This document shows, in pieces, positions 3,934 through 58,660 of a stretch of 64,000 bases of DNA (position 1 is its first letter; each line of letters starts with the position of its first letter). Below the pieces are notes generated by a model. That model searched no databases, was not told where the DNA came from, and saw only the letters and a program-made list of their open reading frames with translations. The position numbers were made by a program, and so were the translations under genes. Origin of the DNA: Candidatus Parcubacteria bacterium. Lineage in GTDB: Bacteria; Patescibacteriota; Minisyncoccia; Phycocordibacterales; PALSA-1337. The stretch lies in the NCBI GenBank assembly GCA_039799225.1, contig JBDLTF010000001.1, forward strand, positions 42,488-106,487. The letters run 5' to 3'.

Positions 3934-3983
3934 GTTTTTGTCTTAAAAGGACACGAATTAAAGTTATCCCCAGATATGTCCTT

Positions 3984-4012: not shown

Positions 4013-4019
4013 TCCCAGA

Positions 4020-4437: not shown

Positions 4438-4440
4438 ACC

Positions 4441-4469
4441 AAAAAAGACCGAAAAAACGGTCTTTTTTA
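4441..4469. terminator. Bidirectional terminator aaaaaagaccg-aaaaaa-cggtctttttt, downstream of xth
   Basis: Perfect hairpin with flanking A-run and T-run. Confidence 0.6.
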
Positions 4470-4497
4470 CTATACAGATTGCTGTTGAGCGGTAGAA

Positions 4498-15772: not shown

Positions 15773-16070
15773 AACATTTGTATCATTTCCGCAAGATGTC
15801 CGCGTGACGGGGATTCAGATTATGATACAGACTCCTCAATAAATAAATGGCCTTGTTAAGCCATATTATTCCCTCTATAGAGAAAGGTACTTATCTAGGG
15901 TATCAGGTGCGGAAGTATTGTCAATGCAAGATATAAACAGTCATTTTATTGGACAAAATGTCAATTAATAGCGTGTGGTAATATTAGAAAAGTGCTCACG
16001 ACTTGGTCGAGGATGGTCACCGATTCGCATACCTCATCGAGGTTCATCTTTTGTATGGTAAACTTCCCCC

Positions 16071-18047: not shown

Positions 18048-18049
18048 AC

Positions 18050-18847: not shown

Positions 18848-18861
18848 TAGAATAGTGGTGC

Positions 18862-19851: not shown

Positions 19852-19902
19852 AGTCAGAAACAAAAACAGTGATACCTGTCCACAGATACGGCCGAGAATC
19901 TA

Positions 19903-20802
19903 TTGATTTTCTGCTATACTTGTAGTGACATGGCGAGCTATTACCCTCACAAACAGACGGTCTTGATCACGATCGCATGCGTCATAGCCGTAGGCGGCGT
20001 ATTTGTATACGCAAAGCAAGGTTCTAGCCCGAAAAAATCAGACTCAAAACCCTCTGTTTCGACTGATATCAAGGTGGTCTCTTCTGAGAAAATATCCTCC
20101 ACAACGGATTGGCGTCTGAGCTTCATCGACAAGCAGACTCCTTCGACACCAAAACCTATTTCTACTACTCAAGAATCGAAAGACCTTACTCTGACGGATC
20201 AATTCGGCAGAGATTTCTTCGCACGCTACATACAACTCAAGCAAAGCAACCTCATCGAGAATGAATCGTTCGTCGCTGATACGCTCAATCAGTCTATATA
20301 CTCCGCTGCTCAATCAGCTGAACAACCAAAAGCATATACTCTCGCGGATGTTTCCATTCTCGCAAATGCCACTACGGCTCAGATAAAAGCGTATGGTAAT
20401 TCTATCGGTCTAATATTTTCCACTCATGGAGTCGATGGAGATCCTGCAGTCGTTGCAAACGAGGCATTTGAAAAAGGGGATATGAGCTTACTCAAACAGA
20501 TAGACCCTATCATATCTTCATATGAAACTATCACCACCATGCTCAAAAATCTTTCTGTGCCTCAACCGCTCGCTGCATATCATGTAGATCTATTGAATGC
20601 TGTATCGAGCATGGCGAAGACATCTCGTGATATCCGCAATGTTGAAAGCGATCCTATGCAGACGATGGTGTCCGTAAGCGCGTATACCACCGTACAAAAC
20701 TCGCTCACTGTGTCACTCAAGAGTATGAAGTCTTATTTCTCCATCGTTGGTATCTCGTACGTTTCGACGGAGCCTGGTTCGATCTTTTCCCAACTATTAT
20801 AA
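19903..20802 (+). CDS. T4SS-like operon gene 2: membrane-anchored or secreted hypothetical protein
   Basis: 299 aa with an N-terminal TM/signal anchor. Confidence 0.5.
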   Translation: MIFCYTCSDMASYYPHKQTVLITIACVIAVGGVFVYAKQGSSPKKSDSKPSVSTDIKVVSSEKISSTTDWRLSFIDKQTPSTPKPISTTQESKDLTLTDQFGRDFFARYIQLKQSNLIENESFVADTLNQSIYSAAQSAEQPKAYTLADVSILANATTAQIKAYGNSIGLIFSTHGVDGDPAVVANEAFEKGDMSLLKQIDPIISSYETITTMLKNLSVPQPLAAYHVDLLNAVSSMAKTSRDIRNVESDPMQTMVSVSAYTTVQNSLTVSLKSMKSYFSIVGISYVSTEPGSIFSQLL

Positions 20803-20811
20803 AACACACTT

Positions 20812-22416
20812 ATGAATATCATTAACAAAAAAATCGCTTCGGTCCTCATACTCATCGCTTTCGTCATCTCTGGCACTCTCGCAACGCCAGCAACGACCTA
20901 TGCACTTGGAGCGGTTCCCGTCGACACAACATTCAACTTCCATAGCATCCAGCAACAAACGAAGGATTTCGTGCTGAACTCACTCGCATGGAATGTGGCT
21001 AAGATGACGTTGCAGCAGCTCACGACGAGTATCGTGAACTGGATCAACACTGGATTCGAGGGAAGTCCTGCATTCATCGACAACCCTGAGGCATTCTTCC
21101 TTGACCTTGGCGACCAAGTCACTGGAAACTTCATTGCAAACGTCGGACCACTCCAAAGCCTCTGTTCTCCATGGAATATCGACCTCCGTCTCTCACTCGC
21201 ACTCGGACAAACACGTTCAATGAGCGAACGCTATCGCTGTACCTTGAGTACACTCATCGGTAACGCGCAGAATGCGACTATCAATGGCTACAGTATCGAA
21301 GGATTCACTTCTGGCGACTTCGCTCAAGGAGGATGGCCAGCATTCATGATCATGACGAGCGAACCTCGCAACAATCCATACGGATCATATCTTCAGGCGA
21401 AGAGTGACCTCGATCAGCAGATAGCCGCTAAACAAAACTCCGTCAACAGTGACCTCGACAGGGGACAGGGCTTCCTCTCGTGGCAAAAGTGCGTTCCTAC
21501 CAACGTGAACAGCAATACAGGAAATGCATCTTCTCTTGGTCTCAATCAGAACGACCTCGCTCAATTGAATGCAAATGGTTCAGTAAATGCGAACGGTACA
21601 AGCTACAAAACGAGTACTGATCCTGAAACAGGATATACCGTATACGAAACATGCTCCGTACAAACTCCTGGATCGGTCATCAGTGCAGGTCTCAATAAGA
21701 GCCTTGGATCAAGTGTGGACCAGCTCAACCTTGCTGACTCGATCAACGAAATTACGAGTGCACTCTTCGCTCAGCTCATATCTCAAGTCTTCACTAAGGG
21801 TCTCGGTGGAAGCAGTCAAAGGTCAGGTGGTCAGACACAGTCATACATCGAACAACTCAATGCACAGTCGAGAGGTGCTGGTGCATATTCAAACTCGACG
21901 CAGAATATCCAGGCAAGCTACGCAATATATCTCACTGATGCCCAGTCAATCGTCAGCACGTATCAGCAAGCTGTAGGTGCATTCGACACTACCCGCAGTA
22001 GCTTCTCGATTGCACAGGGTTGCTTCCAAGATATCGCTCTCGTAGCAACGAAGCAAACCATCAAGAATGAGGCTCAGCGCAATGCAGATGCAATACAGTC
22101 ACTACTCATCAACCAGTTCGGCCCAGCAGCGCTCATATATTCAGACAAGCTCTCTACAGCAAACAGAATAGTCAGTACGATCAATTCTCGCGTCAATTCG
22201 GCACAGAATATCACCGATGCTCAGAGTGCACAGACTGCTTCGAACCAGTTGCAGGAATTCATCGCCACCCAAGTCCCCGCTATCCAGCAAGGCAAAGATC
22301 TTGGCGCGGCAGATCTTACCGCAGCACGAGCTCAAGCAGCACAATTCAAGACGAATGCTGATCAATATATGAATATGTGTACTTCACTCAAAAGCCAATC
22401 AGGTTCCTCACGATAA
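20812..22416 (+). CDS. T4SS-like operon gene 3: secreted Gln/Ser/Asn-rich hypothetical protein
   Basis: 534 aa with signal peptide ending ...GTLATPATTYA. Confidence 0.5.
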   Translation: MNIINKKIASVLILIAFVISGTLATPATTYALGAVPVDTTFNFHSIQQQTKDFVLNSLAWNVAKMTLQQLTTSIVNWINTGFEGSPAFIDNPEAFFLDLGDQVTGNFIANVGPLQSLCSPWNIDLRLSLALGQTRSMSERYRCTLSTLIGNAQNATINGYSIEGFTSGDFAQGGWPAFMIMTSEPRNNPYGSYLQAKSDLDQQIAAKQNSVNSDLDRGQGFLSWQKCVPTNVNSNTGNASSLGLNQNDLAQLNANGSVNANGTSYKTSTDPETGYTVYETCSVQTPGSVISAGLNKSLGSSVDQLNLADSINEITSALFAQLISQVFTKGLGGSSQRSGGQTQSYIEQLNAQSRGAGAYSNSTQNIQASYAIYLTDAQSIVSTYQQAVGAFDTTRSSFSIAQGCFQDIALVATKQTIKNEAQRNADAIQSLLINQFGPAALIYSDKLSTANRIVSTINSRVNSAQNITDAQSAQTASNQLQEFIATQVPAIQQGKDLGAADLTAARAQAAQFKTNADQYMNMCTSLKSQSGSSR

Positions 22417-22434
22417 TCTACTATCACAGACTCC

Positions 22435-24354
22435 ATGAAACGCTACCTGCCACATCTATCAGCAATTCTCATCCTTATCGCCATCATAGTAGGCGGATTT
22501 GGACATGTGGCAAATGCGGGATCATGTCTACCTATTCCAGGCCAGTGGAATACAAATGATTGTGTCATCGACCTCTTCGGATCTGCTATAGATATATTGC
22601 TTGGAGCAGCATCATGGATACTCGCTCTCTCAGGATATGTGCTCAACTTCTCAATGAAGCTGACACTCAATATCAAGACATTCGTGGATAATACTGGCGC
22701 AATCTATCTCGTCTGGAAATCAATCCGCGATATATCGGGTATGTTCATCATCTTCACCTTGATCTTCGCTGCCATCAAGATGATACTCGCTCCTATAGGA
22801 GTACCTGGTCCGAGTGTCGGAAAACTAATTACGACTGTGGTAACAGCCGGCATATTGATCAACTTCAGCTTCTTCATTGCTGGCCTCGGTATAGATATCT
22901 CCAACGTAATATCTGCACAGCTCTACAAGGTCATAGCGCCTGAAAGTAATATTTCTGGAGACATGAAAGTGAATCCTTCGTCATTGCGTGCGGGTCTCGA
23001 TGGGGGAATATCAGACATATTCATGAGCTCGCTCAAAATACAGAAGCTCTACGAAAGTGGACTTGCCGCTGATCCAGGTCGACAGGATCAAAATCCTGCA
23101 GAGACCACTATTCGAGTCATTTGGTCTGGAATCATCGGTATCGTCATCATGATCACCTCTGCACTCAGCTTCTTCCTCGCTGCGTTAGCATTCATCGTAC
23201 GCTTCGTTATTCTTATATTCCTGCTTGGATTCTCTCCTATCTGGCTTGCCGCGTACGCCATACCAGATCTCAAAAAATATGCCGACATGTGGACGAACAC
23301 ATACAAGAGTCAGCTCATCTTCATGCCGGTATATCTTCTCTTGCTCTATTTCGGCTTGAGTGTGCTTACAAGTGCTGACCTCTTCTGGGCTGGAAGCTTC
23401 GATGGGGCAGGGTGGCAAGAAAAGTTGCTCGTCTTCGGTATTAATGCGGCCTTCGTCATCATCATGCTCAATGCACCACTTCTTGCAGCTCTCAGTATTG
23501 GAGCAATGATGCCTAAGTGGGCGAATAATGTAGGTGCAGGAGCAATATGGAAGAGTGTTGGTGGATGGGCAGGTGGTATAGCTGGCAGAGGTACGATGCG
23601 AGTAACTGGTGCCTCGAAAGTTGATGGTTATCTTGCAAATACCAAGGTCGGTAACACTCAGTGGATGCGTGATCTAAGATCAGTAACAACAGGACCTATT
23701 ACCAAGGCAAAATTTGGTAGTTCAAGGTCTATTGAAGATGTCGACAAACTAGGTAAGGACGTACAATCAAAAGCAAAAGAAATACAGAGGGTCAAAGACA
23801 TTAAAGCTCTTATTGCGAATGGTTCAGCGACACGAGATGAATATGCGAATGTATTCAAATCCGTTAAACCTGCTGACCGCGTAGAGCTGATTGGAAAGGA
23901 TAATCTCAAGAATCCAAGTGTCTGGAAGAACCTTGGAAAGGCTGAGCTCGACGCAATAGAGAAATCAGACAAATTTAGCCCTGATGACATCAGCAGTATA
24001 AAGAATGCCCGCAACGCAGCACTCACCTCAGCAGTAGCTGACGGAAGAAAAGACGACACTAGTCATGTCTTGAAAAATACAAATACGGAGGATTTGGCTG
24101 AAATTATTTCAAGTAACACTGCTATGCTCGCTAATCCAAACTTTATTGGTGAGCTGACATCGGAAAATCTAACAAAGTTGAAAGGTGGCCTCACTGAGCC
24201 TCAGCAACATGAAATAGCAAAAACTATTCTGACATGGCGCAGTGGCCCATCAGATCCAGCGCATCCTGCGGAAGGTTGGATGAAACGCGAAGCGAAAAAG
24301 TGGGTTACTTCGGACGTGACCGCACACGGAAAAACATACGCTCCAGAAGCCTAA
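22435..24354 (+). CDS. T4SS-like operon gene 4: polytopic membrane protein of the VirB6/TrbL type with a hydrophilic C-terminal extension
   Basis: 639 aa. Signal/anchor, then six or more TM helices over about 380 aa, then a Lys-rich soluble tail. This topology is typical of VirB6/TrbL. Confidence 0.5.
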   Translation: MKRYLPHLSAILILIAIIVGGFGHVANAGSCLPIPGQWNTNDCVIDLFGSAIDILLGAASWILALSGYVLNFSMKLTLNIKTFVDNTGAIYLVWKSIRDISGMFIIFTLIFAAIKMILAPIGVPGPSVGKLITTVVTAGILINFSFFIAGLGIDISNVISAQLYKVIAPESNISGDMKVNPSSLRAGLDGGISDIFMSSLKIQKLYESGLAADPGRQDQNPAETTIRVIWSGIIGIVIMITSALSFFLAALAFIVRFVILIFLLGFSPIWLAAYAIPDLKKYADMWTNTYKSQLIFMPVYLLLLYFGLSVLTSADLFWAGSFDGAGWQEKLLVFGINAAFVIIMLNAPLLAALSIGAMMPKWANNVGAGAIWKSVGGWAGGIAGRGTMRVTGASKVDGYLANTKVGNTQWMRDLRSVTTGPITKAKFGSSRSIEDVDKLGKDVQSKAKEIQRVKDIKALIANGSATRDEYANVFKSVKPADRVELIGKDNLKNPSVWKNLGKAELDAIEKSDKFSPDDISSIKNARNAALTSAVADGRKDDTSHVLKNTNTEDLAEIISSNTAMLANPNFIGELTSENLTKLKGGLTEPQQHEIAKTILTWRSGPSDPAHPAEGWMKREAKKWVTSDVTAHGKTYAPEA

Positions 24355-24363
24355 TATCATTAT

Positions 24364-25098
24364 ATGAAGCAAACACCTCAACAATTTAGAGACCTCGCTG
24401 ACTCAGCTGAACTCTACGACCGATCCGAAGCGATTGGCGCGAAATTTGGTCTGCTCATCGACCAAATAGGGGAGTTGGATGCAGAAATTCGCGACATTCT
24501 CAATGGTGTCAGTGATTCGGAAGACTTCATCAAGCACATCATCCAGCGTCTTGAGATAGACCGCGGACTCGCCGAAAAAATAGTAACGGAGGTCAATGTG
24601 GCCGTATTCCAAACACTCAAAGACCAGATGCAGGCACGAACGGATGCTCAGGATATACAAGACTCAATCTCGAGCGTAGAGAAAGTGGGTGATTTCAGGA
24701 TAGAGAAGGATAGAGTGCCTGCAGATCCGAAAGTTACTGCTGCGGATAGGAGCAAGATACTCGATAGTCTCGAAAATCCACCGGCTCAAGGAGGTGCGTA
24801 CCCAAAATCAGTCTCTACAGACCATACTGAACCTCTTGTCGACCATCTTCTTCAAAATTCAGTAGGACAGCTTGCGCCGAAGCCTCACCACGAAGCTCCA
24901 GCTCCAAGCAATCTCCCTGTAGTAGAAGAGATTCCTCTGAAAACACCTGCGCCAACTCCAATAAAAGCTCCAGCACCTACCGCCCCAAAGCCTGTTCAAG
25001 CACCAACACAACCGACAACTACTCCAGAAGTACCGAAAACTCCAGCACCTCAACCAAAAAGGTCTGGACCTGACCCTTATAGGGAACTAGCGAACTAG
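24364..25098 (+). CDS. T4SS-like operon gene 5: soluble protein with a Pro/Ala-rich C-terminus
   Basis: 244 aa. Confidence 0.45.
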   Translation: MKQTPQQFRDLADSAELYDRSEAIGAKFGLLIDQIGELDAEIRDILNGVSDSEDFIKHIIQRLEIDRGLAEKIVTEVNVAVFQTLKDQMQARTDAQDIQDSISSVEKVGDFRIEKDRVPADPKVTAADRSKILDSLENPPAQGGAYPKSVSTDHTEPLVDHLLQNSVGQLAPKPHHEAPAPSNLPVVEEIPLKTPAPTPIKAPAPTAPKPVQAPTQPTTTPEVPKTPAPQPKRSGPDPYRELAN

Positions 25099-25132
25099 CA
25101 CACATTCTCACTTGCCGGTATAATAAAGAGCA

Positions 25133-25564
25133 ATGCGCTATCAAGTCCCCCAATTTATCGAGGTTGAGGACAAGATCTTCGGCCCACTTACCTTGAAACA
25201 GTTCATATATCTCGCCGGCGGGGGAGGTCTCTCATTTTTGGCCTATGTATTTGTCGGTAGTCTCACTATCGCCATAGTACCTATCATTGTCATCATGGCA
25301 ATATCCTCTGCTCTGGCATTCTATCGAATCAATAACAAACCATTCGTTAACATCGTCGAATCTGCATTCAAATACTGGCTCGGTAGCAAGCTCTACATCT
25401 GGAAAAAAGAAGACAGGGCATCACAAACCGCGAAATCAGTTGATGCAGACATCAAGAACTACGCCTCAATCATGGTTCCGAAAATTTCTGATAGTAAGCT
25501 GAAGGATTTGAGTTGGAGCTTGGACATCAAAGAAAGTATGTACTCTGACAAGAAACAAAAATAA
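25133..25564 (+). CDS. T4SS-like operon gene 6: small two-TM protein of the VirB3/PrgI type
   Basis: 143 aa. Two adjacent TM helices, positioned immediately upstream of the VirB4 ORFs as in Gram-positive T4SS loci. Confidence 0.5.
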   Translation: MRYQVPQFIEVEDKIFGPLTLKQFIYLAGGGGLSFLAYVFVGSLTIAIVPIIVIMAISSALAFYRINNKPFVNIVESAFKYWLGSKLYIWKKEDRASQTAKSVDADIKNYASIMVPKISDSKLKDLSWSLDIKESMYSDKKQK

Positions 25565-26205
25565 TGGCTCCCAAACAATCAACAACTCAAGGATTTATAC
25601 CGATACAGGAGATTCGCGACGGCGTAGTCATCCTCAAGAACGGCGGTATGCGCGCAGTCGTCTTGGCGTCGTCTCTCAACTTCGCTCTCAAGTCACAGGA
25701 TGAGCAGAGCTCAATCCTTATGCAGTTCCAGAATTTTGTGAACTCACTCGATTTTTCCATACAAATATTCGTCCAGTCTAAGAAACTCGATATCAGACCA
25801 TACATCGCGCTTCTCGAAGACCGCTACAAAGAACAGGTGAGTGAGCTCATGAAGATTCAGGTTCGTGAATACATCGAATTCATCAAAACATTCGTCGAGA
25901 GTACCAACATCATGTCCAAGAGCTTCTTCGTGGTCATACCCTATGATCCACCTATTATGAGTGGTAGCAAAAATCCTCTCGCCAGCATGTTCCCAGGGAA
26001 GAGTGGTGACAAAACTGCAGCAGAGAGCTCAAATGCAAAATTCCAAGAATATCGCAGCCAACTCGAACAGCGTGTCGGCGTGGTAGAGCAGGGCCTCGTG
26101 CGTTGCGGTGTCCGTGCGGCTGAGCTTGGTACAGAAGAAGTAGTTGAGCTCTTCTACAAACTCTTCAACCCTGGCGAGACGGAGAAGCCAATTCAGATAA
26201 CTTAA
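25564..26205 (+). CDS. VirB4/TrsE-family ATPase, N-terminal segment (split gene)
   Basis: 213 aa. The N-terminus resembles the VirB4 N-terminal domain. It ends with TAA 5 nt before the next ORF, which is in a different frame. Confidence 0.55.
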   Translation: MAPKQSTTQGFIPIQEIRDGVVILKNGGMRAVVLASSLNFALKSQDEQSSILMQFQNFVNSLDFSIQIFVQSKKLDIRPYIALLEDRYKEQVSELMKIQVREYIEFIKTFVESTNIMSKSFFVVIPYDPPIMSGSKNPLASMFPGKSGDKTAAESSNAKFQEYRSQLEQRVGVVEQGLVRCGVRAAELGTEEVVELFYKLFNPGETEKPIQIT

Positions 26206-26210
26206 AAGAT

Positions 26211-28022
26211 ATGTCATTCCTCAACAAACTATTCGGAAAAAAAGAAGCTTCTCCTATCGTCTCAATCCTGCCCGAGGAGATCTATCAGGCTGGCGTCCTC
26301 GAACTCAAGGATGTTATTTCGCCATCAGCGCTCAAGGTGAGTCCGAAGGATATAAATCTCGGAGAAAAAGTTGGTCGCACACTCTTCGTCATCTCATACC
26401 CACGCTTCCTCGATGAGAGCTGGTTCGCGCCAATCATAAACCTCGACAAGATATTCAATATCTCCATATTCATACATCCTGTCGATACTGCGAAGATTTT
26501 GAGGCATTTCCAGAAGAAGGTTGCTGAAGTTCAGAGCCAGATCTCCCATAGGGAAGAGAAGGGTCTCGTTCGTGATCCAGCGCTCGATACCGCATACCAA
26601 GATCTCGAGCAGCTTCGCGATCAGCTCATGCAAGCACAGGAGCACCTCTTCGATGTTGGTGTGTATATTACTCTCTTCGCTGATAATGAGGGTGAGCTCG
26701 ACAAGCTTGAATCAGAGATCAAGTCTATCCTCGAGTCCAAGCTTATCTATGTGAAGCCAGCTCTCTTCCAACAGGAACAGGGATTCAAGTCTGTTATTCC
26801 GATCGCTGACGATCAGCTCGCCGTTCATTCCAAGCTCAACTCGTCACCGCTCTCATCTCTTTTTCCATTCGTCTCATTCGACCTCACCTCAGACAAGGGA
26901 ATCCTCTACGGTATCAACCGTCACAACTCATCACTCGTACTCTTCGATCGCTACTCACTCGAGAACTACAACTCGGTGACTTTCGCCGTTGCCGGTGCTG
27001 GAAAATCCTACAACACCAAGCTTGAGATCCTCCGAACACTCATGTTTGATGTCGACGTCATAGTCATCGACCCTGAGAAGGAATATGAATACATGGCGGA
27101 AGCAACAGGAGGGAAGTACTTCAATATCTCACTCAACTCAGAGCACCACATAAACCCATTCGATCTTCCGATACCACGCGAGGATGAGTCTGGTGCAGAT
27201 GTGCTCCGCTCAAACATCATCAACCTTGTCGGTCTCTTCCGCATCATGTTGGGAGGTCTCACACAAGAAGAAGATGCAATCATAGATCGTGCCATCACTG
27301 AAACTTACGCCCTCAAAGATATCACTCCTGAGGCTGATTTCCGCACCGTCGAACCACCACTTCTCTCCGACTTTGAGCTCGTGCTTGCCGGCATGGAAGG
27401 GGGAGAATCTCTTGTGCAGAGGCTCTCGAAATATACCAAAGGAACTTGGTCAGGCTTCATCAATAGGCCGTCAAACATCGATATCAATAAGAAATTCGCT
27501 GTGTTTTCACTCCGCGACATGGAAGATGAGCTCAAGCCAGTGGCCATGTACATCGTCACACACTACATCTGGAATGCTATCCGCAAGAACCTCAAGAAGC
27601 GCCTTCTTGTTATCGATGAGGCGTGGTGGATGATGAAATCAGAGGACACGGCTTCATTCTTGTTCAGCCTCGCCAAGCGTGGTCGTAAATACTTCCTCGG
27701 TCTCGCCACAATCACTCAGGACGTGGATGACTTCTTGAATTCACCGTATGGACTGCCGATTGTGACCAACTCCTCAATCCAGATTCTTTTGAAACAGTCA
27801 CCAACTGTTATTGATCACGTCCAGAAGACTTTCAACCTCACTGATGAAGAGAAATACCTCTTGCTCGAGTCAGACGTAGGGGAGGGTATATTCTTCGTGG
27901 GTCTCAAGCACGTCGCCATCAAAATCGTCGCCTCATATACTGAAGACCAAATCATCACCACCAACCCTGCTCAGGTTTTGAGCATACAGCAATCAAAGAA
28001 GGATCTTGAGCAGGCTGGGTAA
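26211..28022 (+). CDS. VirB4/TrsE/CagE-family T4SS ATPase (ATPase domain)
   Basis: 603 aa. Walker A FAVAGAGKSY, Walker B RLLVIDEAWWMM, and motif ATITQDVDDF. Confidence 0.75.
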   Translation: MSFLNKLFGKKEASPIVSILPEEIYQAGVLELKDVISPSALKVSPKDINLGEKVGRTLFVISYPRFLDESWFAPIINLDKIFNISIFIHPVDTAKILRHFQKKVAEVQSQISHREEKGLVRDPALDTAYQDLEQLRDQLMQAQEHLFDVGVYITLFADNEGELDKLESEIKSILESKLIYVKPALFQQEQGFKSVIPIADDQLAVHSKLNSSPLSSLFPFVSFDLTSDKGILYGINRHNSSLVLFDRYSLENYNSVTFAVAGAGKSYNTKLEILRTLMFDVDVIVIDPEKEYEYMAEATGGKYFNISLNSEHHINPFDLPIPREDESGADVLRSNIINLVGLFRIMLGGLTQEEDAIIDRAITETYALKDITPEADFRTVEPPLLSDFELVLAGMEGGESLVQRLSKYTKGTWSGFINRPSNIDINKKFAVFSLRDMEDELKPVAMYIVTHYIWNAIRKNLKKRLLVIDEAWWMMKSEDTASFLFSLAKRGRKYFLGLATITQDVDDFLNSPYGLPIVTNSSIQILLKQSPTVIDHVQKTFNLTDEEKYLLLESDVGEGIFFVGLKHVAIKIVASYTEDQIITTNPAQVLSIQQSKKDLEQAG

Positions 28023-28509
28023 CATCATTATGGATACAAATCCCAAAAAGAGAACTCTTGCAAAGATAGTCCTTTTCGGATTTTCTGCAATCGTAGACTT
28101 CGCTCAGGTACTCATAACCTTCACTGGTGTCGGTATAGTGGTGAGTGAAGCGATTGAGATTGCTATGCCATTTGCCTTATTCGCACTATTCACTATATTC
28201 AAGATATCTATCATCAATAAACCGAGAAGAGTGGCATCTATGCTTGCTGTCGGATTTGGAGATGCTTTGACGGGTGGTGTAGCGCCATTTTGGGTATTCG
28301 ATGTCTACTATATATTCCGAGATGTGGCCAGAGAAGACGCCCTTATAAATTCAGAACGAGAACAATCTGAAGCCTTGGCAAACACCACAATGCAGCCTTT
28401 ATACCAAAATGGTGTCAGACAGCCACAATCTCAGCCTAATGAAAGACCACAGAACAAACTCAACAAAAATGGTATCCGAGCACCTGGAGGAGGACTGGTC
28501 AAAAGCTAG
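28006..28509 (+). CDS. T4SS-like operon gene 9: small membrane protein with three TM helices
   Basis: 167 aa. Confidence 0.45.
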   Translation: MSRLGNIIMDTNPKKRTLAKIVLFGFSAIVDFAQVLITFTGVGIVVSEAIEIAMPFALFALFTIFKISIINKPRRVASMLAVGFGDALTGGVAPFWVFDVYYIFRDVAREDALINSEREQSEALANTTMQPLYQNGVRQPQSQPNERPQNKLNKNGIRAPGGGLVKS

Positions 28510-28562
28510 CCTATACACATTTTTCATCGCATATAGAGCGTAATATTGCTAAAATAGAGTCA

Positions 28563-29597
28563 ATGAACTCTCGTTTTCTCTCATTTTTGATTGTATGCAT
28601 TTGCATCTCTTTCTTGTGGGTATCTACTGTTTCAGCCCAGACCATACCTACAGGAATTAGTGGCCTCGTCATCGAGACGTCGTCTTCCAATCCGTACCCA
28701 GGACAGGAGGTAACGGTAACACTCAAAAGCTACTCTATAGACATAGACTCTTCGACTATATCTTGGTCCATAAACGGGAAAGCTGTCCAGAGCGGTATAG
28801 GTACAAAAACCGTCAAAGTAATCGCCCCTGACCTTGGAAAATCATTGGTGGTATCTGTAAGCGCTCGTGCAAGCTCTGGAGCGACAATGTCTGATTCAAT
28901 AACAATAAGCCCAAGCTCCGTCGACATGATAGTGGAATCAGATGGCTATGTGCACCCACTCTTCTCAGGAAAAGTATCTCCACGATATCAGAACGTGGTC
29001 AAAATAATTGCTGTACCACATCTCAGCGCAGCCAACGGAACAGAATACGACCCGAAGACACTCATATATACTTGGAAAAAGGGAAGTACTGTACTCCAAG
29101 ACCAGTCCGGTTATGGTAAACAGTCTATCTATCTCGCAGGAGACATCGTTCCACGACCATACGAGGTGACTGTGTCGATCGCTACGCGTGATGGTGGTGC
29201 ACAAGGACAAGGAACTTTGTCCATCGGCGCAACAAACCCATCAATAGGATTCTATGTCACCGATCCGCTCTACGGAACTTTCTTCAATAAGGCTGTGACT
29301 AACACTGTACGCATAGGTTCAGAGAAGGAGACTTCTGTTCTCGCTGTACCATTCGGATTTAACAAGCCTATAGATGGTATCGGGAATCTTTCATTGACCT
29401 GGCTCATCAACAGTATCAAACACTCTGAACTAGCTTCTAGCCAATCTGTCATTTTGCGCGCACCTGAAGGATCTGCAGGAACATCCAACATACGCCTCGA
29501 TATCAGGAATAGCGATAAGATTCTACAGAGCGCAAGTACTGGATTCTCAGCGAGCTTCACTGGGAATACTGAAAGCGAGGAAGATGTCTCATTCTAA
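28563..29597 (+). CDS. T4SS-like operon gene 10: secreted beta-rich hypothetical protein
   Basis: 344 aa with a signal peptide. Confidence 0.5.
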   Translation: MNSRFLSFLIVCICISFLWVSTVSAQTIPTGISGLVIETSSSNPYPGQEVTVTLKSYSIDIDSSTISWSINGKAVQSGIGTKTVKVIAPDLGKSLVVSVSARASSGATMSDSITISPSSVDMIVESDGYVHPLFSGKVSPRYQNVVKIIAVPHLSAANGTEYDPKTLIYTWKKGSTVLQDQSGYGKQSIYLAGDIVPRPYEVTVSIATRDGGAQGQGTLSIGATNPSIGFYVTDPLYGTFFNKAVTNTVRIGSEKETSVLAVPFGFNKPIDGIGNLSLTWLINSIKHSELASSQSVILRAPEGSAGTSNIRLDIRNSDKILQSASTGFSASFTGNTESEEDVSF

Positions 29598-29606
29598 TCA
29601 TTTCTC

Positions 29607-30764
29607 ATGAATACACTTATGAAAAAAACATGCACACTAGCCTTAGCGACATATATCATCGCCGTATCCATCGCACCGATAACTATATATGCAGATACTG
29701 GATCAAATACCACCTCTGGAAATTCTGTCGCGACCTATACATTGCTTGAACCATTACCTTGTCTCAATGACGGAACACAAAAATGTACGGATGGGGGGAT
29801 AGTTACACAGGTAAACTTCGCCGACTATGTTCGTTATATGTTCAATTTGATTATTGCACTCTCAGCCGTTGCGGCAGTGCTCGTCATTGTCGCTGGAGGA
29901 TTCAAATATGTCACCACCGACTCATTCCAAGGCAAGAATGACGGAAAGAAGATGATACTTGAGGCACTCAAAGGACTTCTGCTGGTACTCTGTTCTTACC
30001 TTATCCTCAGAACAATCGACCCTCGTCTTGTGGATATACCTTCGACAATAGTGAAGCCTCTTCCGATCAGTTATCAAAAAGGAGTGACTTACGGTTATTT
30101 CGACCAGCTCGCATCAGAAGCTAGCAAGTATAATGCGAATGATCGAGCAGCCGTACTCGCTCGAGAAGTAGCGAAGAAACAGACTCAGGATCTCAAAAAT
30201 CAGCTGGATATAATTGACGAGAAGCTAGGAAAAATATACAGCGGTGATGCAGAAGCGACTCAGGAAGAAATAAATTCACTGAGTAAACAACGTGCGCTTA
30301 TTTCTGATCAGATAAATGGAACTATTTCTGAGGCAACAATACAAAATGCTATTGCTATATACAACGCACAAATGCGAAATGTGGTTGACCCTAAGGATGA
30401 AGTCACTCTCGACACGATAGAAGCCTACCTGAATAACATTCAGAAAGTGAATGCTTCAACACAAGAACAACTCAACAAGAATTTGAATGAAGAGACACCT
30501 GAGCAGAAAGAAAAGCTCGCAAATGAAAAATCCTATTCGGAAGCTAGAATACTCATAGTGAAATACGAACATTTCACCACTTCGCTCGATCCAAAAGCAG
30601 TTGATGCTGCAATAGCAAAACTGAATTCACTAAAGACAACCACTATCGCATCGATTACTGACAAAACACGAAGAGATGAATTGACCAGCGCTGCAGATAA
30701 AGCGATCGAGAGCTTGAAGGCAAGCATTAGCACTGACGCTTATGATGGTGGTGTAATGTATTAA
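29607..30764 (+). CDS. T4SS-like operon gene 11: signal peptide plus two hydrophobic helices separated by a short loop (VirB2/TrbC-pilin-like topology), then a roughly 230-aa coiled-coil extension
   Basis: 385 aa. Confidence 0.4.
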   Translation: MNTLMKKTCTLALATYIIAVSIAPITIYADTGSNTTSGNSVATYTLLEPLPCLNDGTQKCTDGGIVTQVNFADYVRYMFNLIIALSAVAAVLVIVAGGFKYVTTDSFQGKNDGKKMILEALKGLLLVLCSYLILRTIDPRLVDIPSTIVKPLPISYQKGVTYGYFDQLASEASKYNANDRAAVLAREVAKKQTQDLKNQLDIIDEKLGKIYSGDAEATQEEINSLSKQRALISDQINGTISEATIQNAIAIYNAQMRNVVDPKDEVTLDTIEAYLNNIQKVNASTQEQLNKNLNEETPEQKEKLANEKSYSEARILIVKYEHFTTSLDPKAVDAAIAKLNSLKTTTIASITDKTRRDELTSAADKAIESLKASISTDAYDGGVMY

Positions 30765-30777
30765 TCGATAGATTTCT

Positions 30778-32100
30778 ATGAAAAAAATCCTCCCCGTACT
30801 CCTCATATTCCTCATCCTCGCAGCCACGGGGTATTGGTATTTCTTCATGCGCACATCAACAACTGGTACAACACCTGATACGACTGGAACTGATCAGCAG
30901 GGAGGATTCCAGCCATTTGGAAGACCTTCAACAGGAGGTCAGCAAGGAACAGAGACCGGGAGCATTCCTGTAGTTTCAACAAGCACTGATGTATCAACTC
31001 CAGTCAAAATACCCACCCTCCGCCTCTTGAGTGCTACGCCTGTCGGAGGATACGGCGCCAGCACGACCGCTAGCACGACCGTTATACGTTGGGTAGATCG
31101 CGGAAGGGGCAACATATACGAGGCACGTGGTAACACTCTCGATACCATCACTATATCCAATACCATCGTTCCAAGGATATACCAAAGTATATGGAATAAG
31201 GCCGCAAATGCATTTATCGCTTCAACACTCGACGAGGATGGAGCATCTATAGGCTCAGTCTACGCCGACATCAAAGCCCGCATCATTCCCAAGGCTGCTA
31301 CAAGCACCTCGGCCACAAGCACACCTAGACTCGGACTTGGAGTAGGGGCGGATGGGCAGACTATCACTCCTTATGAGCTTAAGGGTAAAAACCTTCCTGA
31401 GAATATCGTTGCATACGCCGCATCTCCGAAGAGAGACAAACTTTTCATGCTTGTCGATGATAATGGTACTGGCATAGGCTATGTATCCACATTCGATGGA
31501 AAGTCCGTGACTCAGATCTTCAGCACTCCACTCACCCAACTCAATGTAGAATGGCCTGAGGAGAATACGATTGCTCTAACAACAAAGGGTACAGCTAGCG
31601 AAGGGGGGTACCTCTACTTTGTTAACGCAAAGACAGGTATCTGGAGTAAAATTCTCGGTCCACTCGCGGGTATAAGTACTCGTGTGAGTACTGATGCCAA
31701 GCGTGTACTTGTATCTACCACCGGTAGCAACAAGAATGTTCTTGCGAGTATTTATACCGTTGCCGACAAGAAGGGTATAGATGCAATCGTCAGAACACTC
31801 GCCGACAAATGTATTTGGGGTAATTTCTATAAAGAAATGGTGTACTGTGCGACACCATCACAACCAACAGCAGGAATATATCCTGATGACTGGTACACAG
31901 GAACTATTTCGACCGTAGACAAGATATGGCAGATCAACGGAGCAACGGGGGAGATTCAACTCGTCTCTTCTATAATCGATACTTCCGACCGTGTCATCAA
32001 TGCATTCAATCTCGGTCTAGATCAGAAGGACAACTTCCTCTTCTTCATGAATAAAGATGACTTATCTCTCTGGTCACTCGACTTGGTTTCAAGCAACTAG
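30778..32100 (+). CDS. T4SS-like operon gene 12: membrane-anchored or secreted hypothetical protein
   Basis: 440 aa with an N-terminal TM. Confidence 0.5.
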   Translation: MKKILPVLLIFLILAATGYWYFFMRTSTTGTTPDTTGTDQQGGFQPFGRPSTGGQQGTETGSIPVVSTSTDVSTPVKIPTLRLLSATPVGGYGASTTASTTVIRWVDRGRGNIYEARGNTLDTITISNTIVPRIYQSIWNKAANAFIASTLDEDGASIGSVYADIKARIIPKAATSTSATSTPRLGLGVGADGQTITPYELKGKNLPENIVAYAASPKRDKLFMLVDDNGTGIGYVSTFDGKSVTQIFSTPLTQLNVEWPEENTIALTTKGTASEGGYLYFVNAKTGIWSKILGPLAGISTRVSTDAKRVLVSTTGSNKNVLASIYTVADKKGIDAIVRTLADKCIWGNFYKEMVYCATPSQPTAGIYPDDWYTGTISTVDKIWQINGATGEIQLVSSIIDTSDRVINAFNLGLDQKDNFLFFMNKDDLSLWSLDLVSSN

Positions 32101-33370: not shown

Positions 33371-33423
33371 AGGTGCATACTATAAATCAAAACTGATAAT
33401 TTCGCAAGTATTTAGAGTTTCTA

Positions 33424-33541
33424 CTAGAACACAAGGAAAGATGTGTGCAAACTGCCATGTAGGCACAGTGAATTACATATAATGTCCTCCAAGAAACTTT
33501 GCCGGTATGGCAGTTTGCACACATCTTTCCTTGTGTTCTAG
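33424..33541. promoter_or_regulatory. Perfect 35-bp inverted repeat (ctagaacacaaggaaagatgtgtgcaaactgccat, arms at 33424-33458 and 33507-33541) in the rpmH-dnaA intergenic region. Putative oriC or dnaA-promoter element, flanked by DnaA-box-like TTATCAACA.
   Basis: Exact reverse-complement match of 35 nt around a 48-nt spacer. Confidence 0.5.
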
Positions 33542-33628
33542 TTGTCCCCAACTTATCAACATAAATTTTATCTCTCCACAAGTTTGCAAATCTATAAACA
33601 GGTATATACTTACTGGGCATCAAATCCT

Positions 33629-34975: not shown

Positions 34976-35200
34976 TTGGGGAAAAGTCTGTGAATAAGTT
35001 GTATATAGAGTAGGAAAAGTCTGTGGGTAAACCGATAAGTAATACACATAAACATCTCAGGAAAAAACCAGATAAAAACTTTCAACAAGATGTTTAAAAT
35101 AAAAAACCTATAGCACTCATATCTGAAGCCATTAAATTAATTTATACACATACCCACAGGACTAATAACGAATGTGTGATTAAATAAATAAAAAACTACT
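34976..35200. promoter_or_regulatory. Putative oriC: AT-rich dnaA-dnaN spacer with DnaA-box-like 9-mers TGTGAATAA, TGTGGGTAA, and CCACAGG on the opposite strand
   Basis: Boxes one mismatch from TTATCCACA, AT-rich runs (the DNA unwinding element), and a position typical of Firmicutes-type origins. Confidence 0.5.
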
Positions 35201-36307: not shown

Positions 36308-36568
36308 ATGCTTAATATATCTGAATTCTTCAAGAGGGTGCAGGGAAAGCATGCGAAAGAAGTCGTCGTAAGGACTTCTGTATGTGATGCTATACGTAAG
36401 TATGCAGGATTTGATATCCCTATGGAGAAGGTTAATTTCAATTCAGATACAGTAGTTCTTGAAGGACTTACTGCAATGCAAAAATCTCAGATCTATATCA
36501 AGAAGCAAGCTATTCTCGACGAAGCCAATTCTCAGCAGTCTATTCGTGTGATAGGGGATATTAGGTAG
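36308..36568 (+). CDS. Small protein after dnaN, possibly DUF721/DciA-like
   Basis: 86 aa. Only the position and size suggest this. Confidence 0.3.
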   Translation: MLNISEFFKRVQGKHAKEVVVRTSVCDAIRKYAGFDIPMEKVNFNSDTVVLEGLTAMQKSQIYIKKQAILDEANSQQSIRVIGDIR

Positions 36569-36570
36569 CT

Positions 36571-36684
36571 TCACAGAGCAGCGCGCATGTGTGCGGCAAC
36601 GCTGCATGCGCAGCTTCTTGAAATCATTTACATTTGTTCACTTCGCATGCAGCGTTGCCGCACACATGCGCGCTGCTCTGTGAT
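36571..36684. repeat. Giant perfect palindrome, element A: 40-bp arms tcacagagcagcgcgcatgtgtgcggcaacgctgcatgcg around a 34-nt AT-rich loop
   Basis: Exact reverse-complement arms. GC-rich. Shares the core GCGCATGTGTGCG(G)CAAC with the element at 51292-51410. Confidence 0.7.
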
Positions 36685-36696
36685 GATACTTATTTA

Positions 36697-39740: not shown

Positions 39741-40214
39741 TTAGCGACTACACGCCGCATGTGTCAGCGCCACCGCTATAGCGTCATATTCGTCATCTAC
39801 AGTCTTTTTTGCAGGAATATCTATGAGGAGATGAACCATCTTGATGATGCGTTCTTTGTCACTTTTTCCATCACTCGTGATAGCCGACTTGATCTCCATA
39901 GGACCATACTCGTGAACAGGGATTCCTGCGCGTACTGCCTCGTAAATGATGATGCCACGCGCTTCAGAGACTCGCATAGCAGTCTTCTGGTTCTTGGTTA
40001 TGAAAAGAGTTTCCAGAGCCATGGCGTCAGGCTTGTATTCAGCAATGATACGTGCAACTTCTGCGCCAACTGCATGGAAACGGTTGTAAATAGAATCTTT
40101 GGCTGAAGTCTGTAAACAACCAGAGTAGAGAAGGTTCTCGCGACCCTTTGAAGGTTTTTCGATGACGGCAATGCCGAGGCGATCGTATCCAGGATCTATA
40201 CCGAGAATTATCAT
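39741..40214 (-). CDS. ruvC: Holliday junction resolvase RuvC
   Basis: 157 aa. MIILGIDPGYDRLGIAV. Confidence 0.85.
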   Translation of the reverse strand: MIILGIDPGYDRLGIAVIEKPSKGRENLLYSGCLQTSAKDSIYNRFHAVGAEVARIIAEYKPDAMALETLFITKNQKTAMRVSEARGIIIYEAVRAGIPVHEYGPMEIKSAITSDGKSDKERIIKMVHLLIDIPAKKTVDDEYDAIAVALTHAACSR

Positions 40215-40253
40215 GGGTTAAGTATAGCGCACACATTTCTGTGTGCGCTCGAA

Positions 40254-42126: not shown

Positions 42127-42470
42127 TAGGTAGTGTATAATATACATATCAGGAATGCGAACGACAGGTGTCGCATTTTTCTATGTCCACACTAGCGATA
42201 GACATGCCCATTTCGAACTCGTGAACCTCTAAGCAATGGCCTTCCCAGGTTTGGGTATAGTGCTAAGGACATTTTGGTTGCAATGCTTGCATTGCGTACT
42301 GAAATTATCCTCGGGACTCTACCTCGCTTGGCGCATCATGCGCCGAGATATTGCTTAGAGATTCTCTAGTTTGAAGAGATTGTTCTACTGAACATCCTAC
42401 TCCTCGACCCGTCTAGAAATCAATGGGGAAAAGTTCCAGCGCACGCCTTTGACAGGGAAGTCAAAGGCGT
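42127..42470 (+). ncRNA. Candidate plus-strand noncoding RNA of about 340 nt, located between two minus-strand genes
   Basis: Extended -10 promoter gtgTATAAT at about 42128-42140. No ORF above 20 aa. Ends in a plus-strand intrinsic terminator cgcctttgac-aggga-agtcaaaggcg + tttt at about 42434-42465. Confidence 0.3.
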
Positions 42471-44495: not shown

Positions 44496-44645
44496 TGATG
44501 TACAGTATAGCGACAAGTGAGGACTTGTGGAAGCTCGCTTACACAAAGTCCGAGCGCGGATGATATATGAGCGGAGCGAATATTTCGCAAAAAAGGGAGC
44601 TGTGTCGTGCGGATAAGAGCTCTCAACTAAGCCATGGGAAGCCTA

Positions 44646-44675
44646 TTGACTTTCATCATATAAATGTGATATAAT
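44646..44675 (+). promoter_or_regulatory. Sigma70-like promoter TTGACT-18nt-TGaTATAAT for the secreted-protein gene
   Basis: Near-consensus -35 and extended -10 elements. Confidence 0.45.
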
Positions 44676-44730
44676 ATACTATAGAAAAGCATATGCGACG
44701 CAATTCCGCGTCACATGAACAAAAGGTTTT

Positions 44731-51291: not shown

Positions 51292-51410
51292 AGACACCCC
51301 GCAGGCGGCGCATGTGTGCGCAACATGGTACACGTAGTTTCTTAATATAATCTATACCTGTTCACTGCGTGTACCATGTTGCGCACACATGCGCCGCCTG
51401 CGGGGTGTCT
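51292..51410. repeat. Giant perfect palindrome, element B: 43-bp arms agacaccccgcaggcggcgcatgtgtgcgcaacatggtacacg around a 33-nt AT-rich loop, lying between divergent genes
   Basis: Exact reverse-complement arms. Shares the GCGCATGTGTGCG...CAAC core with 36571-36684. Confidence 0.7.
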
Positions 51411-51430
51411 GCTATACTATGTGCAATATT

Positions 51431-52687
51431 ATGCGCCACTATATAGCCCTCGCTATCCTCATAAGCTTATTCCTGACGCCCTGGATGGCGACTCATTTTC
51501 CTGAACAAGCTGCTCGCCTCGCGGGATATATTGAGAATGTAGGAAGTCAGATTGCCGCAATAGTGACTCACAACCCACGTACCATTGCAGGGCTCCAGAA
51601 GAAGTATTCCGTGGACGCGGAGAGGGGAAGAGCGAAGATTCGAGTGGTCCTCATTCCTGGTCATGAGCCTGGATATGGTGGTGCGGAGTACGGCGATCTC
51701 AAAGAGCGCGATCTCACTGTGCAGCTTGCTGGTGAACTCGCGAATTTCCTTCGTATGAACAGTAAATATGAAGTTGTTATTGCACGCGACGATAAGGCGT
51801 GGAATCCTATTTTCCAGAACTATTTCGATAATTCATGGGACAGCATTATTGAATGGCAGAAGGCTCACAAAGCTGAGTCTCTCCGCCAGGTCACAGAGGT
51901 GGATACAGATTTTGTACCCAAGGTGCACCATAACAGTGCACCCAATGATGTTGCATATCGTCTCTACGGTATTACCAAGTGGTCCAATGAGAACGCAGTC
52001 GACATAGCCGTACATATTCACTTCAATGATTACCCAGGTCACGGATGGAAAATTCCTGGAGAGTACAGCGGGTTCTCTATATATGTTCCAGAAGCCCAGT
52101 ATTTGAACAGCACCACGACGCGTGCTATCGCGGAGACAGTCTTCAAGCGTCTGGCGAAATACAATGCAGTTTCTGATTTTCAGGGAGAATCAGCCGGCAT
52201 CGTCGACGAACGAGAGCTTATAGCTATCGGTGCAAATAATACTGCTGACGCGGCAAGCTTACTTGTCGAGTATGCATATCTCTATGAACAGCAGATCGCA
52301 AATCCAGAGACACGTACGCTCGCGCTCAAGGACCTAGCTTACCAAACATACCTTGGTCTCGAGGATTTCTTCAATCAAGGCAAGGCAACAGTCGCCTCGA
52401 CAGCATATGATACGTTGACCCTTCCTCATACATGGAGTAGTCCACTCTCAGAGACAGTTGCATCTATGGGTGATGTGTATGCGCTTCAGACCGCACTTCT
52501 TCTCGATGGTGTGTATCCTCCAGGAAACAGAAGCAAGAATGATTGTCCACGCACGGGGAAGATAGGTCCATGCACGAAGGAGGCTATCAAGGAGTTTCAA
52601 AATAAATATGGTTTGGAGGTAACAGGTACAATAGGCCCTAAGACATTGGAGAAGCTCAACGGCCTCTATTCAGTGAAGCCTATTTAA
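51431..52687 (+). CDS. N-acetylmuramoyl-L-alanine amidase (Amidase_3) with a C-terminal peptidoglycan-binding domain
   Basis: MurNAc-LAA motifs (IPGHEPG, GAEY.., HFN), C-terminal PG_binding_1-like LQTALLLDG...TGTIGPKT. The start is set at 51431 because the 51389 start lies inside the palindrome arm. Confidence 0.7.
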   Translation: MRHYIALAILISLFLTPWMATHFPEQAARLAGYIENVGSQIAAIVTHNPRTIAGLQKKYSVDAERGRAKIRVVLIPGHEPGYGGAEYGDLKERDLTVQLAGELANFLRMNSKYEVVIARDDKAWNPIFQNYFDNSWDSIIEWQKAHKAESLRQVTEVDTDFVPKVHHNSAPNDVAYRLYGITKWSNENAVDIAVHIHFNDYPGHGWKIPGEYSGFSIYVPEAQYLNSTTTRAIAETVFKRLAKYNAVSDFQGESAGIVDERELIAIGANNTADAASLLVEYAYLYEQQIANPETRTLALKDLAYQTYLGLEDFFNQGKATVASTAYDTLTLPHTWSSPLSETVASMGDVYALQTALLLDGVYPPGNRSKNDCPRTGKIGPCTKEAIKEFQNKYGLEVTGTIGPKTLEKLNGLYSVKPI

Positions 52688-58555: not shown

Positions 58556-58660
58556 TTAAGTGGAATAATAGGCGCATTATATAGATTAAATAACCAAGAT
58601 ACAAGAAACAAAACCTCAAGCTGAAATCTTGGTTATTGTATCTTGGTTATTGGTGATTCA

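Follow-up and report, generated by a model that had tools for sequence, protein, structure and literature searches.

How do giant perfect palindromes persist between the genes of an extremely compact bacterial genome, given that few sequences in bacterial chromosomes are normally less stable than a long perfect palindrome? The question is raised by a 64-kb stretch of DNA from a Candidatus Parcubacteria bacterium (here called the window), in which a first-pass annotation had pointed to two such elements, copy A (36571 to 36683) and copy B (51292 to 51410). We analyzed these together with a third copy, C (33423 to 33542), and with the corresponding loci of relatives. We lean toward explaining A, B, and C as copies of a "foldback" element, a non-autonomous repeat of palindromic DNA that is symmetrized by templated copying and is gained and lost at operon boundaries. 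This repeat would be endemic to a narrow Parcubacteria clade, whose genomes contain several such families.

Copies A and B are giant perfect palindromes with arms of 40 bp and 43 bp, as first annotated; the limits originally given for B were exact, and the end given for A (36684) lay one base too far. The left arm of A (36571 to 36610, plus strand, 40 nt, 65% GC) carries GCGCATGTGTGCGGCAAC, with the motif ATGTGTGC at 36587 to 36594, and is the exact reverse complement of the right arm (36644 to 36683, plus strand, 40 nt). Between them lies an asymmetric center of 33 nt (36611 to 36643, plus strand, 30% GC) that reads C-AG-CTTCTT...N17...TTC-ACT-T, with the loop motif matching at 36612 to 36641. 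Outside the arms, an imperfect extension (36562 to 36570, TAGGTAGCT) pairs at 6 of 9 positions with 36684 to 36692 (TGATACTTA). In B, the left arm (51292 to 51334, plus strand, 43 nt, 65% GC; ATGTGTGC at 51312 to 51319) and the right arm (51368 to 51410, plus strand, 43 nt) enclose a center (51335 to 51367, plus strand, 33 nt, 27% GC) that reads T-AGT-TTCTT...N17...TTC-ACT-G. The loops, annotated as AT-rich and 33 to 34 nt long, are AT-rich (27 to 30% GC), and both measure 33 nt. The two copies share an internal motif, as had been noticed, in the form of GCGCATGTGTGCGGCAAC in A and its version GCGCATGTGTGCGCAAC in B.

An inverted-repeat scan of the window yielded copy C, which lies in the opposite orientation to A and B and whose arms are perfect over 36 bp and extend to 47 nt at 91%. 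Its rpmH-side arm (33423 to 33458, minus strand, 36 nt and perfect, 42% GC; ATGTGTGC at 33441 to 33448) and its dnaA-side arm (33507 to 33542, minus strand), which abuts the conserved dnaA promoter and DnaA-box block (TGTCCCCAACTTATCAACA...), flank a center (33459 to 33506, minus strand) that reads ACC-GGCA-A-AGT-TTCTT...TTC-ACT-G-TGCC-TAC on the minus strand. The apical module of C is that of A and B, inverted. All three copies have a common layout: a variable outer stem, which bears out the annotated difference in outer arm sequence, is followed by ATGTGTGC, 16 to 18 variable stem positions, a 1x1 mismatch, AGT, the loop TTCTT-N17/18-TTC, ACT, and the mirrored stem. ATGTGTGC lies at a fixed distance from the asymmetric center AGYTTCTT-N17/18-TTCACT, and the conserved 1x1 mismatch stands directly below a short helix (AG/CT in A; AGT/ACT in B, C, and the copy D described below). 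The asymmetry of the center gives every copy a direction, plus for A and B and minus for C. Elements measure 113 to 127 bp, with perfect arms of 36 to 49 bp. ATGTGTGC occurs nine times in the window, compared with 2.0 expected, and none of 100 shuffles reached nine.

A pattern scan of metagenome contigs returned one chance match and one true additional member, copy D, between tatD and rpsF (L004 587 to 713, equal to L005; L numbers denote contigs of relatives and metagenomes). Copy D has 43-bp perfect arms of differing sequence, the same ATGTGTGC, and the center TTCTTGAAAT...TTCACT. The core motif thus recurs beyond A and B, in C and in D, and we refer to the four copies as family 1. Their arms are only 53 to 66% identical between copies, while each is 100% self-complementary over 36 to 43 bp, and 24 of 37 predicted pairs have changed on both sides. 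Two viral pattern scans gave chance matches only, and an nhmmer search of 240 kb (the window plus relatives) found no degenerate family-1 copies.

The fate of the symmetry can be followed across lineages at the site of B. For comparison we used syntenic dnaA loci from seven related lineages (DnaA 81 to 94% identical) as well as mutM loci of three lineages. Orthologues of B occupy the mutM/amidase site in L034/L036 (MutM 82% identical) and in L031 (MutM 79%); their arms are 74 to 79% identical to those of B, contain indels, and are perfect over 43 to 46 bp in every lineage. In the alignment, 20 of 46 pairs had changed on both sides, and there were no one-sided changes in the stem body. The outer arm of B, AGACACCCCGCAGGCGGCGCATGTGT, is conserved in L034 and L031 (AGAC..CGCAGG..GCGCATGTGT); the inner arm and the center are wholly different in the orthologues. 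Because orthologues at 79 to 82% MutM identity are still perfect, with substitutions and indels mirrored, B has been maintained for long. The annotation had held that perfect arms imply either strong maintenance or a very recent origin; for B the first holds, and the second is excluded. In a further lineage, L032 (MutM 75%), the B site contains only AGAGACCCCGCAGGCGGGGTCTCT, a 24-nt mini-hairpin that consists of B's outer 11 bp joined. This fits loss by slippage, since it is the exact product of slippage between GCGG repeats in the two arms of B. The string TCTGCTATACTAT at the junction of B with the amidase gene is kept in all four lineages, including the one reduced to the mini-hairpin.

The symmetry resides in the DNA. 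Across 16 palindromes with 669 arm positions, all 46 mismatches fall at the outer or inner edges, and the perfect blocks contain no mismatches and no G-T pairs. Single-strand folding energies are −47 to −66 kcal/mol, with z-scores of −12.6 to −17.7 for RNA of either strand and −14 to −17 for DNA. Mirrored indels together with the lack of wobble pairs point to arm-to-arm copying of DNA and not selection on an RNA hairpin. The same follows from the equal folding of both strands, from the position of B and C between divergent promoters, and from the contrast between palindromes free of G-T pairs and a G-U-rich candidate RNA in the same genomes (window, 42212 to 42375; see below).

Insertion-site occupancy, a comparison proposed in the annotation, differs between relatives. 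The A site measures 0 to 31 nt in six loci that represent five lineages (L007/8, L024, L027, L030, and L038), and in L009 it is occupied by an unrelated palindrome. A palindrome of L007 (4336 to 4455) corresponds to a 7-nt spacer in the window. L007 is the closest relative with a dnaA locus (DnaA 94%), and none of the four palindromes in the syntenic block is shared between it and the window. Unrelated palindromes recur at the same junctions, namely upstream of dnaA in five of eight lineages, at the convergent junction between yidC and a type IV secretion system (T4SS)-like gene cluster in three, and at the A site in two. Three further junctions hold a small hairpin in a relative that lacks the giant palindrome, and in each case the small stem is homologous to the outer portion of the giant one: a window terminator (GTAACAAAAAAGCACAT...) matches the arm of the L024 palindrome, AGGTAAT-N17-ATTACCT at the A site of L038 matches the imperfect outer extension of A, and AACACAAG..TTGTGT of L027 matches C. 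We also considered whether arms are copied from the local flank by fold-back duplication and rejected this, as nothing arm-like is present at the sites where A or the L007-4336 palindrome is missing. The dnaA-upstream spacers of L007 and L027 have borderline similarity to the arm of C (24 to 25 of 500 shuffles score as well).

Family 1 is not alone. The relatives' loci contain many other palindromes of 95 to 131 bp, with perfect arms of 22 to 42 bp and centers of 36 to 63 nt, which group into families mostly by their centers. Palindromes occur roughly once per 7 to 20 kb in the regions examined. Their arms have a signature in common, with ACACA/TGTGT in 13 of 20 arms (1.0 expected), CATGTG in 8 of 20 (0.2 expected), and GCAGG in 7 of 20 (1.2 expected), so that the "core" first noticed in A and B belongs to a wider hallmark. 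Within the window, family-1 centers are in minus orientation to the left of dnaA-dnaN (C) and in plus orientation to its right (A and B). A replication-strand bias in orientation would fit these three copies; it is contradicted by family 2 in L007, where copies occur in both orientations on one side of dnaA.

Other palindromic sequences were seen along the way. In the divergent spacer beside pilB (T2SSE), family-3 palindromes occur in L009 (~20680 to 20790) and L029 (21055 to 21150) with oppositely oriented centers, and the corresponding spacer of the window (44547 to 44730) contains an apparent degenerate single arm (CTGTGTCGTGCGGATA). The polA gene of L031 includes two in-frame palindromic stretches (14733 to 14857 and 15410 to 15486); against PolA from the window and from L032, one of them amounts to a 13-amino-acid insertion and the other to a remodeled linker that is ~13 amino acids longer. 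A separate palindromic repeat family with the conserved arm sequence AATAACCAAGATACAA is found at 58589 to 58651 of the window and at 8379 to 8521 of L029, at different loci. The largest intergenic gap of the window (3934 to 4497) holds a palindrome (4039 to 4109) with arms of 19 to 23 bp and a center of 25 to 33 nt, which has no match in Rfam. Lastly, a small GC-rich hairpin between yebC and ruvC (40226 to 40249, AGCGCACACA-TTTC-TGTGTGCGCT) has its 9-mer in common with the stem motif of family 1, and TATACT-N6-ATG comes directly after it.

From these patterns we infer a mode of insertion and the involvement of an enzyme, a homogenizing role for template switching, and an effect on transcription. 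A copy would arrive at an operon boundary, among the few sites that a very compact genome tolerates, often nested within a pre-existing small hairpin. Its arms would then be held exactly complementary by copying at the DNA level, with substitutions and even indels mirrored, most likely through intramolecular template switching at replication ("quasi-palindrome correction") or through arm-to-arm gene conversion. Turnover would be fastest in the center and inner stem, and slipped-strand deletion between short direct repeats would in the end reduce the copy to a mini-hairpin. Such elements would mostly be neutral baggage. When transcribed, they would form a 40-bp hairpin that may block or process read-through; between divergent promoters they would merely sit in untranscribed spacer.

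It is important to note that several results weigh against the foldback-repeat reading. There is no near-identical pair of copies that would prove recent transposition, only three copies are visible in 64 kb, and neither the window nor ~200 kb of relatives' loci yielded a mobilizing enzyme. The outer ends, which are the usual target of a transposase, are the least conserved part of family 1. A strict pattern scan of 185,579 species-representative GTDB genomes returned no family-1 copy and one non-palindromic chance match, which means either that the family is very narrow or that the pattern was too strict. The small hairpins described above fit both insertion at the apex of a pre-existing hairpin and deletion to a mini-hairpin. 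Finally, a single site next to a conserved −10 box has kept B through species-level divergence, which would also fit a function for the host.

A host function is the main rival, although we consider it unlikely. The palindromes would then be host-selected structures, such as a cruciform or protein-bound DNA site, or an RNA insulator, RNase III site, or bidirectional terminator between transcription units, with the apex and ATGTGTGC kept by selection for a host protein. The retention of B in the divergent mutM/amidase promoter region of three lineages, where it abuts a conserved and extended −10-like box (TGC-TATACT, 51410 to 51418, plus strand), speaks for this, as do the fixed spacing of apical and stem motifs in A to D and the recurrence of palindromes upstream of dnaA in five of eight lineages. 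Moreover, T4SS/yidC junctions that lack a giant palindrome have canonical A-tract/T-tract terminators, and those that have one are otherwise empty. On the other hand, the center and inner stem of B have been fully replaced in its orthologues, close relatives have empty sites or a mini-hairpin with no visible compensation, and the copies of different lineages at one junction are unrelated in sequence. The orientation of the asymmetric center is independent of gene direction, and the lack of G-T pairs argues against selection at the RNA level alone. U-tracts are absent, and B and C are probably untranscribed. The proposal that A serves as a plain terminator fails likewise, as it has no U-tract and its family members B and C lie between divergent promoters.

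Somewhat less probable again is that these elements represent a new class of mobile DNA. In a new class, recognition would be by the apex and mid-stem motif, not by the termini, and the element would home to the tips of existing hairpins or cruciforms, where it would come to be nested in small hairpins and terminators of the host. Hairpin-templated synthesis on the first arm would restore the second, and the mobilizer would be an unrecognized structure-specific enzyme or host replication and repair alone. If true, this joint proposal would account for perfect arms, mirrored indels, missing target duplications, variable outer arms, and the reuse of junctions.

We think it improbable that the palindromes are like the repetitive extragenic palindrome (REP) or PATE elements, mobilized in trans by an HUH (Y1) transposase of the REP-associated tyrosine transposase (RAYT) or IS200/IS605 type acting on a single-stranded DNA (ssDNA) hairpin at the fork. 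No target-site duplications were found at 14 elements, as HUH transposition of ssDNA predicts, and the recognizable determinants (mid-stem motif, apex, and conserved 1x1 mismatch) lie inside the hairpin and not at its termini. The center orientation also flips across the likely origin (C minus on the left, A and B plus on the right), with a sample of only three. Against this idea, family-2 copies to one side of dnaA point both ways. Next to REPs, these palindromes are three to four times as long, with perfect arms of 36 to 49 bp, and they lack the separate left-end and right-end structures of IS200/IS605. No common flanking tag was present at the 14 elements, nor a consistent GTAG/CGTC tag, GTAG being found near A only and CGTC beside D only. 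Searches of the window (Pfam with ~50 open reading frames [ORFs]; NCBIfam with 10 unknowns) found no transposase, HUH, Y1_Tnp/RAYT, or protelomerase gene, and neither the window nor the relatives' loci contain an insertion sequence (IS). The sole recombinase in the window is an Xer-like tyrosine recombinase (5961 to 6926). What stands of the annotated REP- or MITE-like element (MITE, miniature inverted-repeat transposable element) is the dispersed palindromic family, and the tag and size of REPs and the termini and duplications of MITEs do not apply. We also considered integron attC sites, which have R''/L''-L'/R' boxes with extrahelical bases and flank cassettes beside intI, and rejected them: the stem bodies are perfect without extrahelical bases, the neighbors are housekeeping genes, and the lone tyrosine recombinase is Xer-like and distant.

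That the palindromes are precursors of guide RNAs is very improbable. The variable 40-bp stems would confer specificity and the apex would be the processing signal of an RNase III- or Argonaute-type defense, in a lineage mostly without CRISPR. Variable perfect stems that differ among copies, joined to a conserved apex, are what this idea expects. However, a search of 2.9 million viral contigs gave no exact match to any of three arm 20-mers, the palindromes have no similarity to phages or plasmids and no second arm match in the compared loci, and the arms of different copies are homologous to each other (GCAGG, CATGTGT) and not captured sequences. B and C have no obvious promoter. We found no consistent −35/−10 pair in the four family-1 centers, and a consensus scan for a promoter within the loop gave none. 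A known RNA family was rejected as well: in Rfam scans of the window at the gathering threshold and by E value, only tRNAs passed, and the palindromes appear only as spurious, sub-threshold matches to generic miRNA precursor hairpins.

Protelomerase sites are uninterrupted palindromes cut at the dyad. The annotated option of a hairpin-telomere-resolvase target is effectively refuted by anatomy, since the center is an asymmetric spacer (33 to 48 nt; 33 nt in A and B), at least three copies are internal to the chromosome, and the window encodes no protelomerase. An origin hairpin specific to oriC is equally hard to sustain: the dyad symmetry is long and perfect, and C and A flank dnaA-dnaN, with the likely oriC in that spacer, but B lies 15 kb from the origin, D lies beside tatD/rpsF, and the palindrome upstream of dnaA is absent in three of eight lineages and unrelated in sequence among the other five. 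An assembly artifact such as a fold-back chimera, which might be suspected because short-read assemblers break at palindromes and Logan k=31 contigs, which derive from raw reads, break off within the arms, exactly 30 nt in, can be set aside, as independent NCBI, ENA, and JGI-type metagenome assemblies hold orthologous or family members with the same palindrome and flanks (a single loop base separates L004 from L005, and L034 is identical to L036), one Logan contig (L030) spans a whole palindrome, and mirrored changes occur in orthologues of different species.

The gene contexts of the copies agree with the annotation. A lies between convergent genes (an 86-amino-acid ORF downstream of dnaN, and the gene for PBP1A) and B between divergent mutM and an Amidase_3 gene; C occupies the spacer between the divergent rpmH-rnpA-yidC operon and dnaA, between two predicted promoters. 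The reported overlap of B with the start of the amidase gene was an ORF-calling artifact: the N terminus MRHYIAL..., conserved in four lineages, begins at the ATG at 51431, 20 nt past the palindrome, and the ATG at 51389 is not the true start. Similarly, the conserved start of dnaA is at 33629, the TTG at 33542 being another such artifact. The TGC-TATACT box beside B is a putative promoter. A −10 box followed after ~6 to 12 nt by an ATG recurs (for instance, TGCTATAAT-N6-ATG) at 51410 to 51433 and 40205 to 40226 of the window and at 4456 to 4474 of L007, and this spacing suggests that leaderless or near-leaderless mRNAs may be used in the clade.

Several further features of the window deserve mention. 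In the spacer between dnaA and dnaN (34976 to 35200) lie three 9-mers that resemble DnaA boxes, an A-rich tract, and a motif, GGAAAAGTCTGTG, that is repeated. Because of these features and a minimum of cumulative GC skew at ~31 to 33 kb, this spacer is the probable oriC. About 30 kb from dnaA, a pair of sequences matching the parS consensus lies within the gene for a CCA-adding enzyme or poly(A) polymerase, one (3327 to 3342, TGTTTCACGTGGAACA) being an exact Bacillus-type site and the other (3375 to 3390, TGGTTCACGTGAAACA) having one mismatch. The T4SS-like gene cluster (~16000 to 32100) adjoins yidC-rnpA-rpmH-dnaA, with synteny in all relatives. Most of it has no match in Pfam or NCBIfam; gene calls in the relatives' clusters include PrgI, TraC-like, VirB4/TraG-like P-loop, and T4SS-pilin proteins. 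The candidate RNA named above is a conserved structured element of ~165 nt between ruvB and a 107-amino-acid ORF, present in every relative (window, 42212 to 42375; L007, 19046 to 19209; L009, 18382 to 18551; L024, 18218 to 18383; L027, 18153 to 18318; L029, 18614 to 18781; L031, 20255 to 20418). RNAalifold modeled 64 pairs; compensatory changes support 11, and invariant G-U pairs are numerous. The element has no Rfam match, even at an E value of ≤1. We regard it as a candidate for an unnamed noncoding RNA.

Palindromes are thus frequent here despite extreme genome streamlining, and at least one has remained perfectly symmetric across species-level divergence, with mirrored indels. The clade offers a natural system in which to study how palindromes are tolerated and symmetrized, what confines them to operon boundaries, and by what route hairpin repeats spread when no transposase is visible. 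This third question is the same unsolved one that is posed by Rickettsia palindromic elements (RPEs), by enterobacterial repetitive intergenic consensus (ERIC) sequences, and by the hairpin elements of organelles. In practice, the elements break short-read assemblies of Candidate Phyla Radiation (CPR) genomes and create false N-terminal extensions of ORFs, here in dnaA and the amidase gene. A full-text literature search found no description of such elements in CPR/Patescibacteria. Their unusual traits are the giant perfect arms, the mirrored indels, determinants that lie at the apex and mid-stem and not at the ends, and the repeated use of particular junctions. A survey ranked CPR/Parcubacteria-type phyla highest of all phyla in the density of perfect inverted repeats, counting only those with spacers of ≤8 bp (PMC13155455).

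Among known systems, the small noncoding fold-back elements (MITEs, ERIC/IRU, Correia [NEMIS], and RUP) resemble the palindromes in length (~100 to 150 bp), intergenic position, and strain-variable occupancy. MITEs, however, end in terminal inverted repeats that are conserved among copies and correspond to an autonomous IS, and a target-site duplication flanks each copy, whereas A, B, C, and D are dissimilar at their outer ends, the conserved parts are the mid-stem and apex, and duplications are absent. An intrinsic terminator pairs a short, GC-rich stem and small loop with a U-tract on its 3' side, downstream of a gene; the palindromes have stems of 40 bp, 33-nt loops, no U-tract, and, for B and C, a position between divergent genes. 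The inverted terminal repeats (ITRs) of adeno-associated virus (AAV) are ~125-nt hairpins with a perfect stem of ~40 bp, a fixed protein-recognition motif in the stem, and an asymmetric apex in two orientations, and their arm identity is regenerated by hairpin-templated synthesis. As a comparison of mechanism only, parvovirus/AAV ITRs are similar in hairpin size, perfect stem, fixed stem motif, and an apex found in two orientations, but ITRs are the ends of linear ssDNA genomes served by the HUH protein Rep, and the elements here are internal to a chromosome with no rep gene in view.

RPEs are palindromic repeats of 100 to 150 bp that form several families in a reduced, host-dependent genome, where they are intergenic and occasionally in frame within genes; they have no known transposase. 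Their copies are imperfect palindromes with a consensus recognizable over the full length. The palindromes described here are likewise dispersed, 100 to 150 bp long, and of variable occupancy at orthologous sites. The in-frame stretches in polA of L031, which resemble such insertions, belong to palindromes other than family 1 of the window. Unlike RPEs, as these have been described, the copies are only ~55 to 65% alike, and each is perfectly self-complementary over 36 to 49 bp. Homology between the two is unlikely, given the different phylum.

REPs and bacterial interspersed mosaic elements (BIMEs) are GTAG/CGTC-tagged palindromes associated with RAYT transposases (PMC3733652). Like them, the elements here are extragenic palindromes at operon boundaries, without target duplications and with determinants inside the hairpin; REPs, however, are 20 to 40 nt long, imperfect, tagged, and often clustered, which the elements here are not, and they are accompanied by a RAYT gene that they typically flank, whereas the window encodes none. 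Replication is known to turn imperfect inverted repeats into perfect ones through quasi-palindrome template switching in Escherichia coli and yeast (PMC3820800). This process would yield mirrored substitutions and indels like those between B orthologues, but it is known as a mechanism of mutational hotspots and not as a long-term maintainer of repeat families, and its action here is a proposal. Perfect palindromes are also found in organelles, including those of Volvox, the repetitive hairpin elements of sponges, and the coding palindromes of Nematomorpha (PMC2670323, PMC2800124, PMC6649704). These too look selfish, reside in compact genomes, and have perfect arms long maintained by an unknown copying process, although organelles are not bacteria and their hairpins lack a conserved asymmetric apex or mid-stem motif. 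On the best-supported reading, the Parcubacteria palindromes are closest in behavior to RPEs and organellar hairpin repeats.

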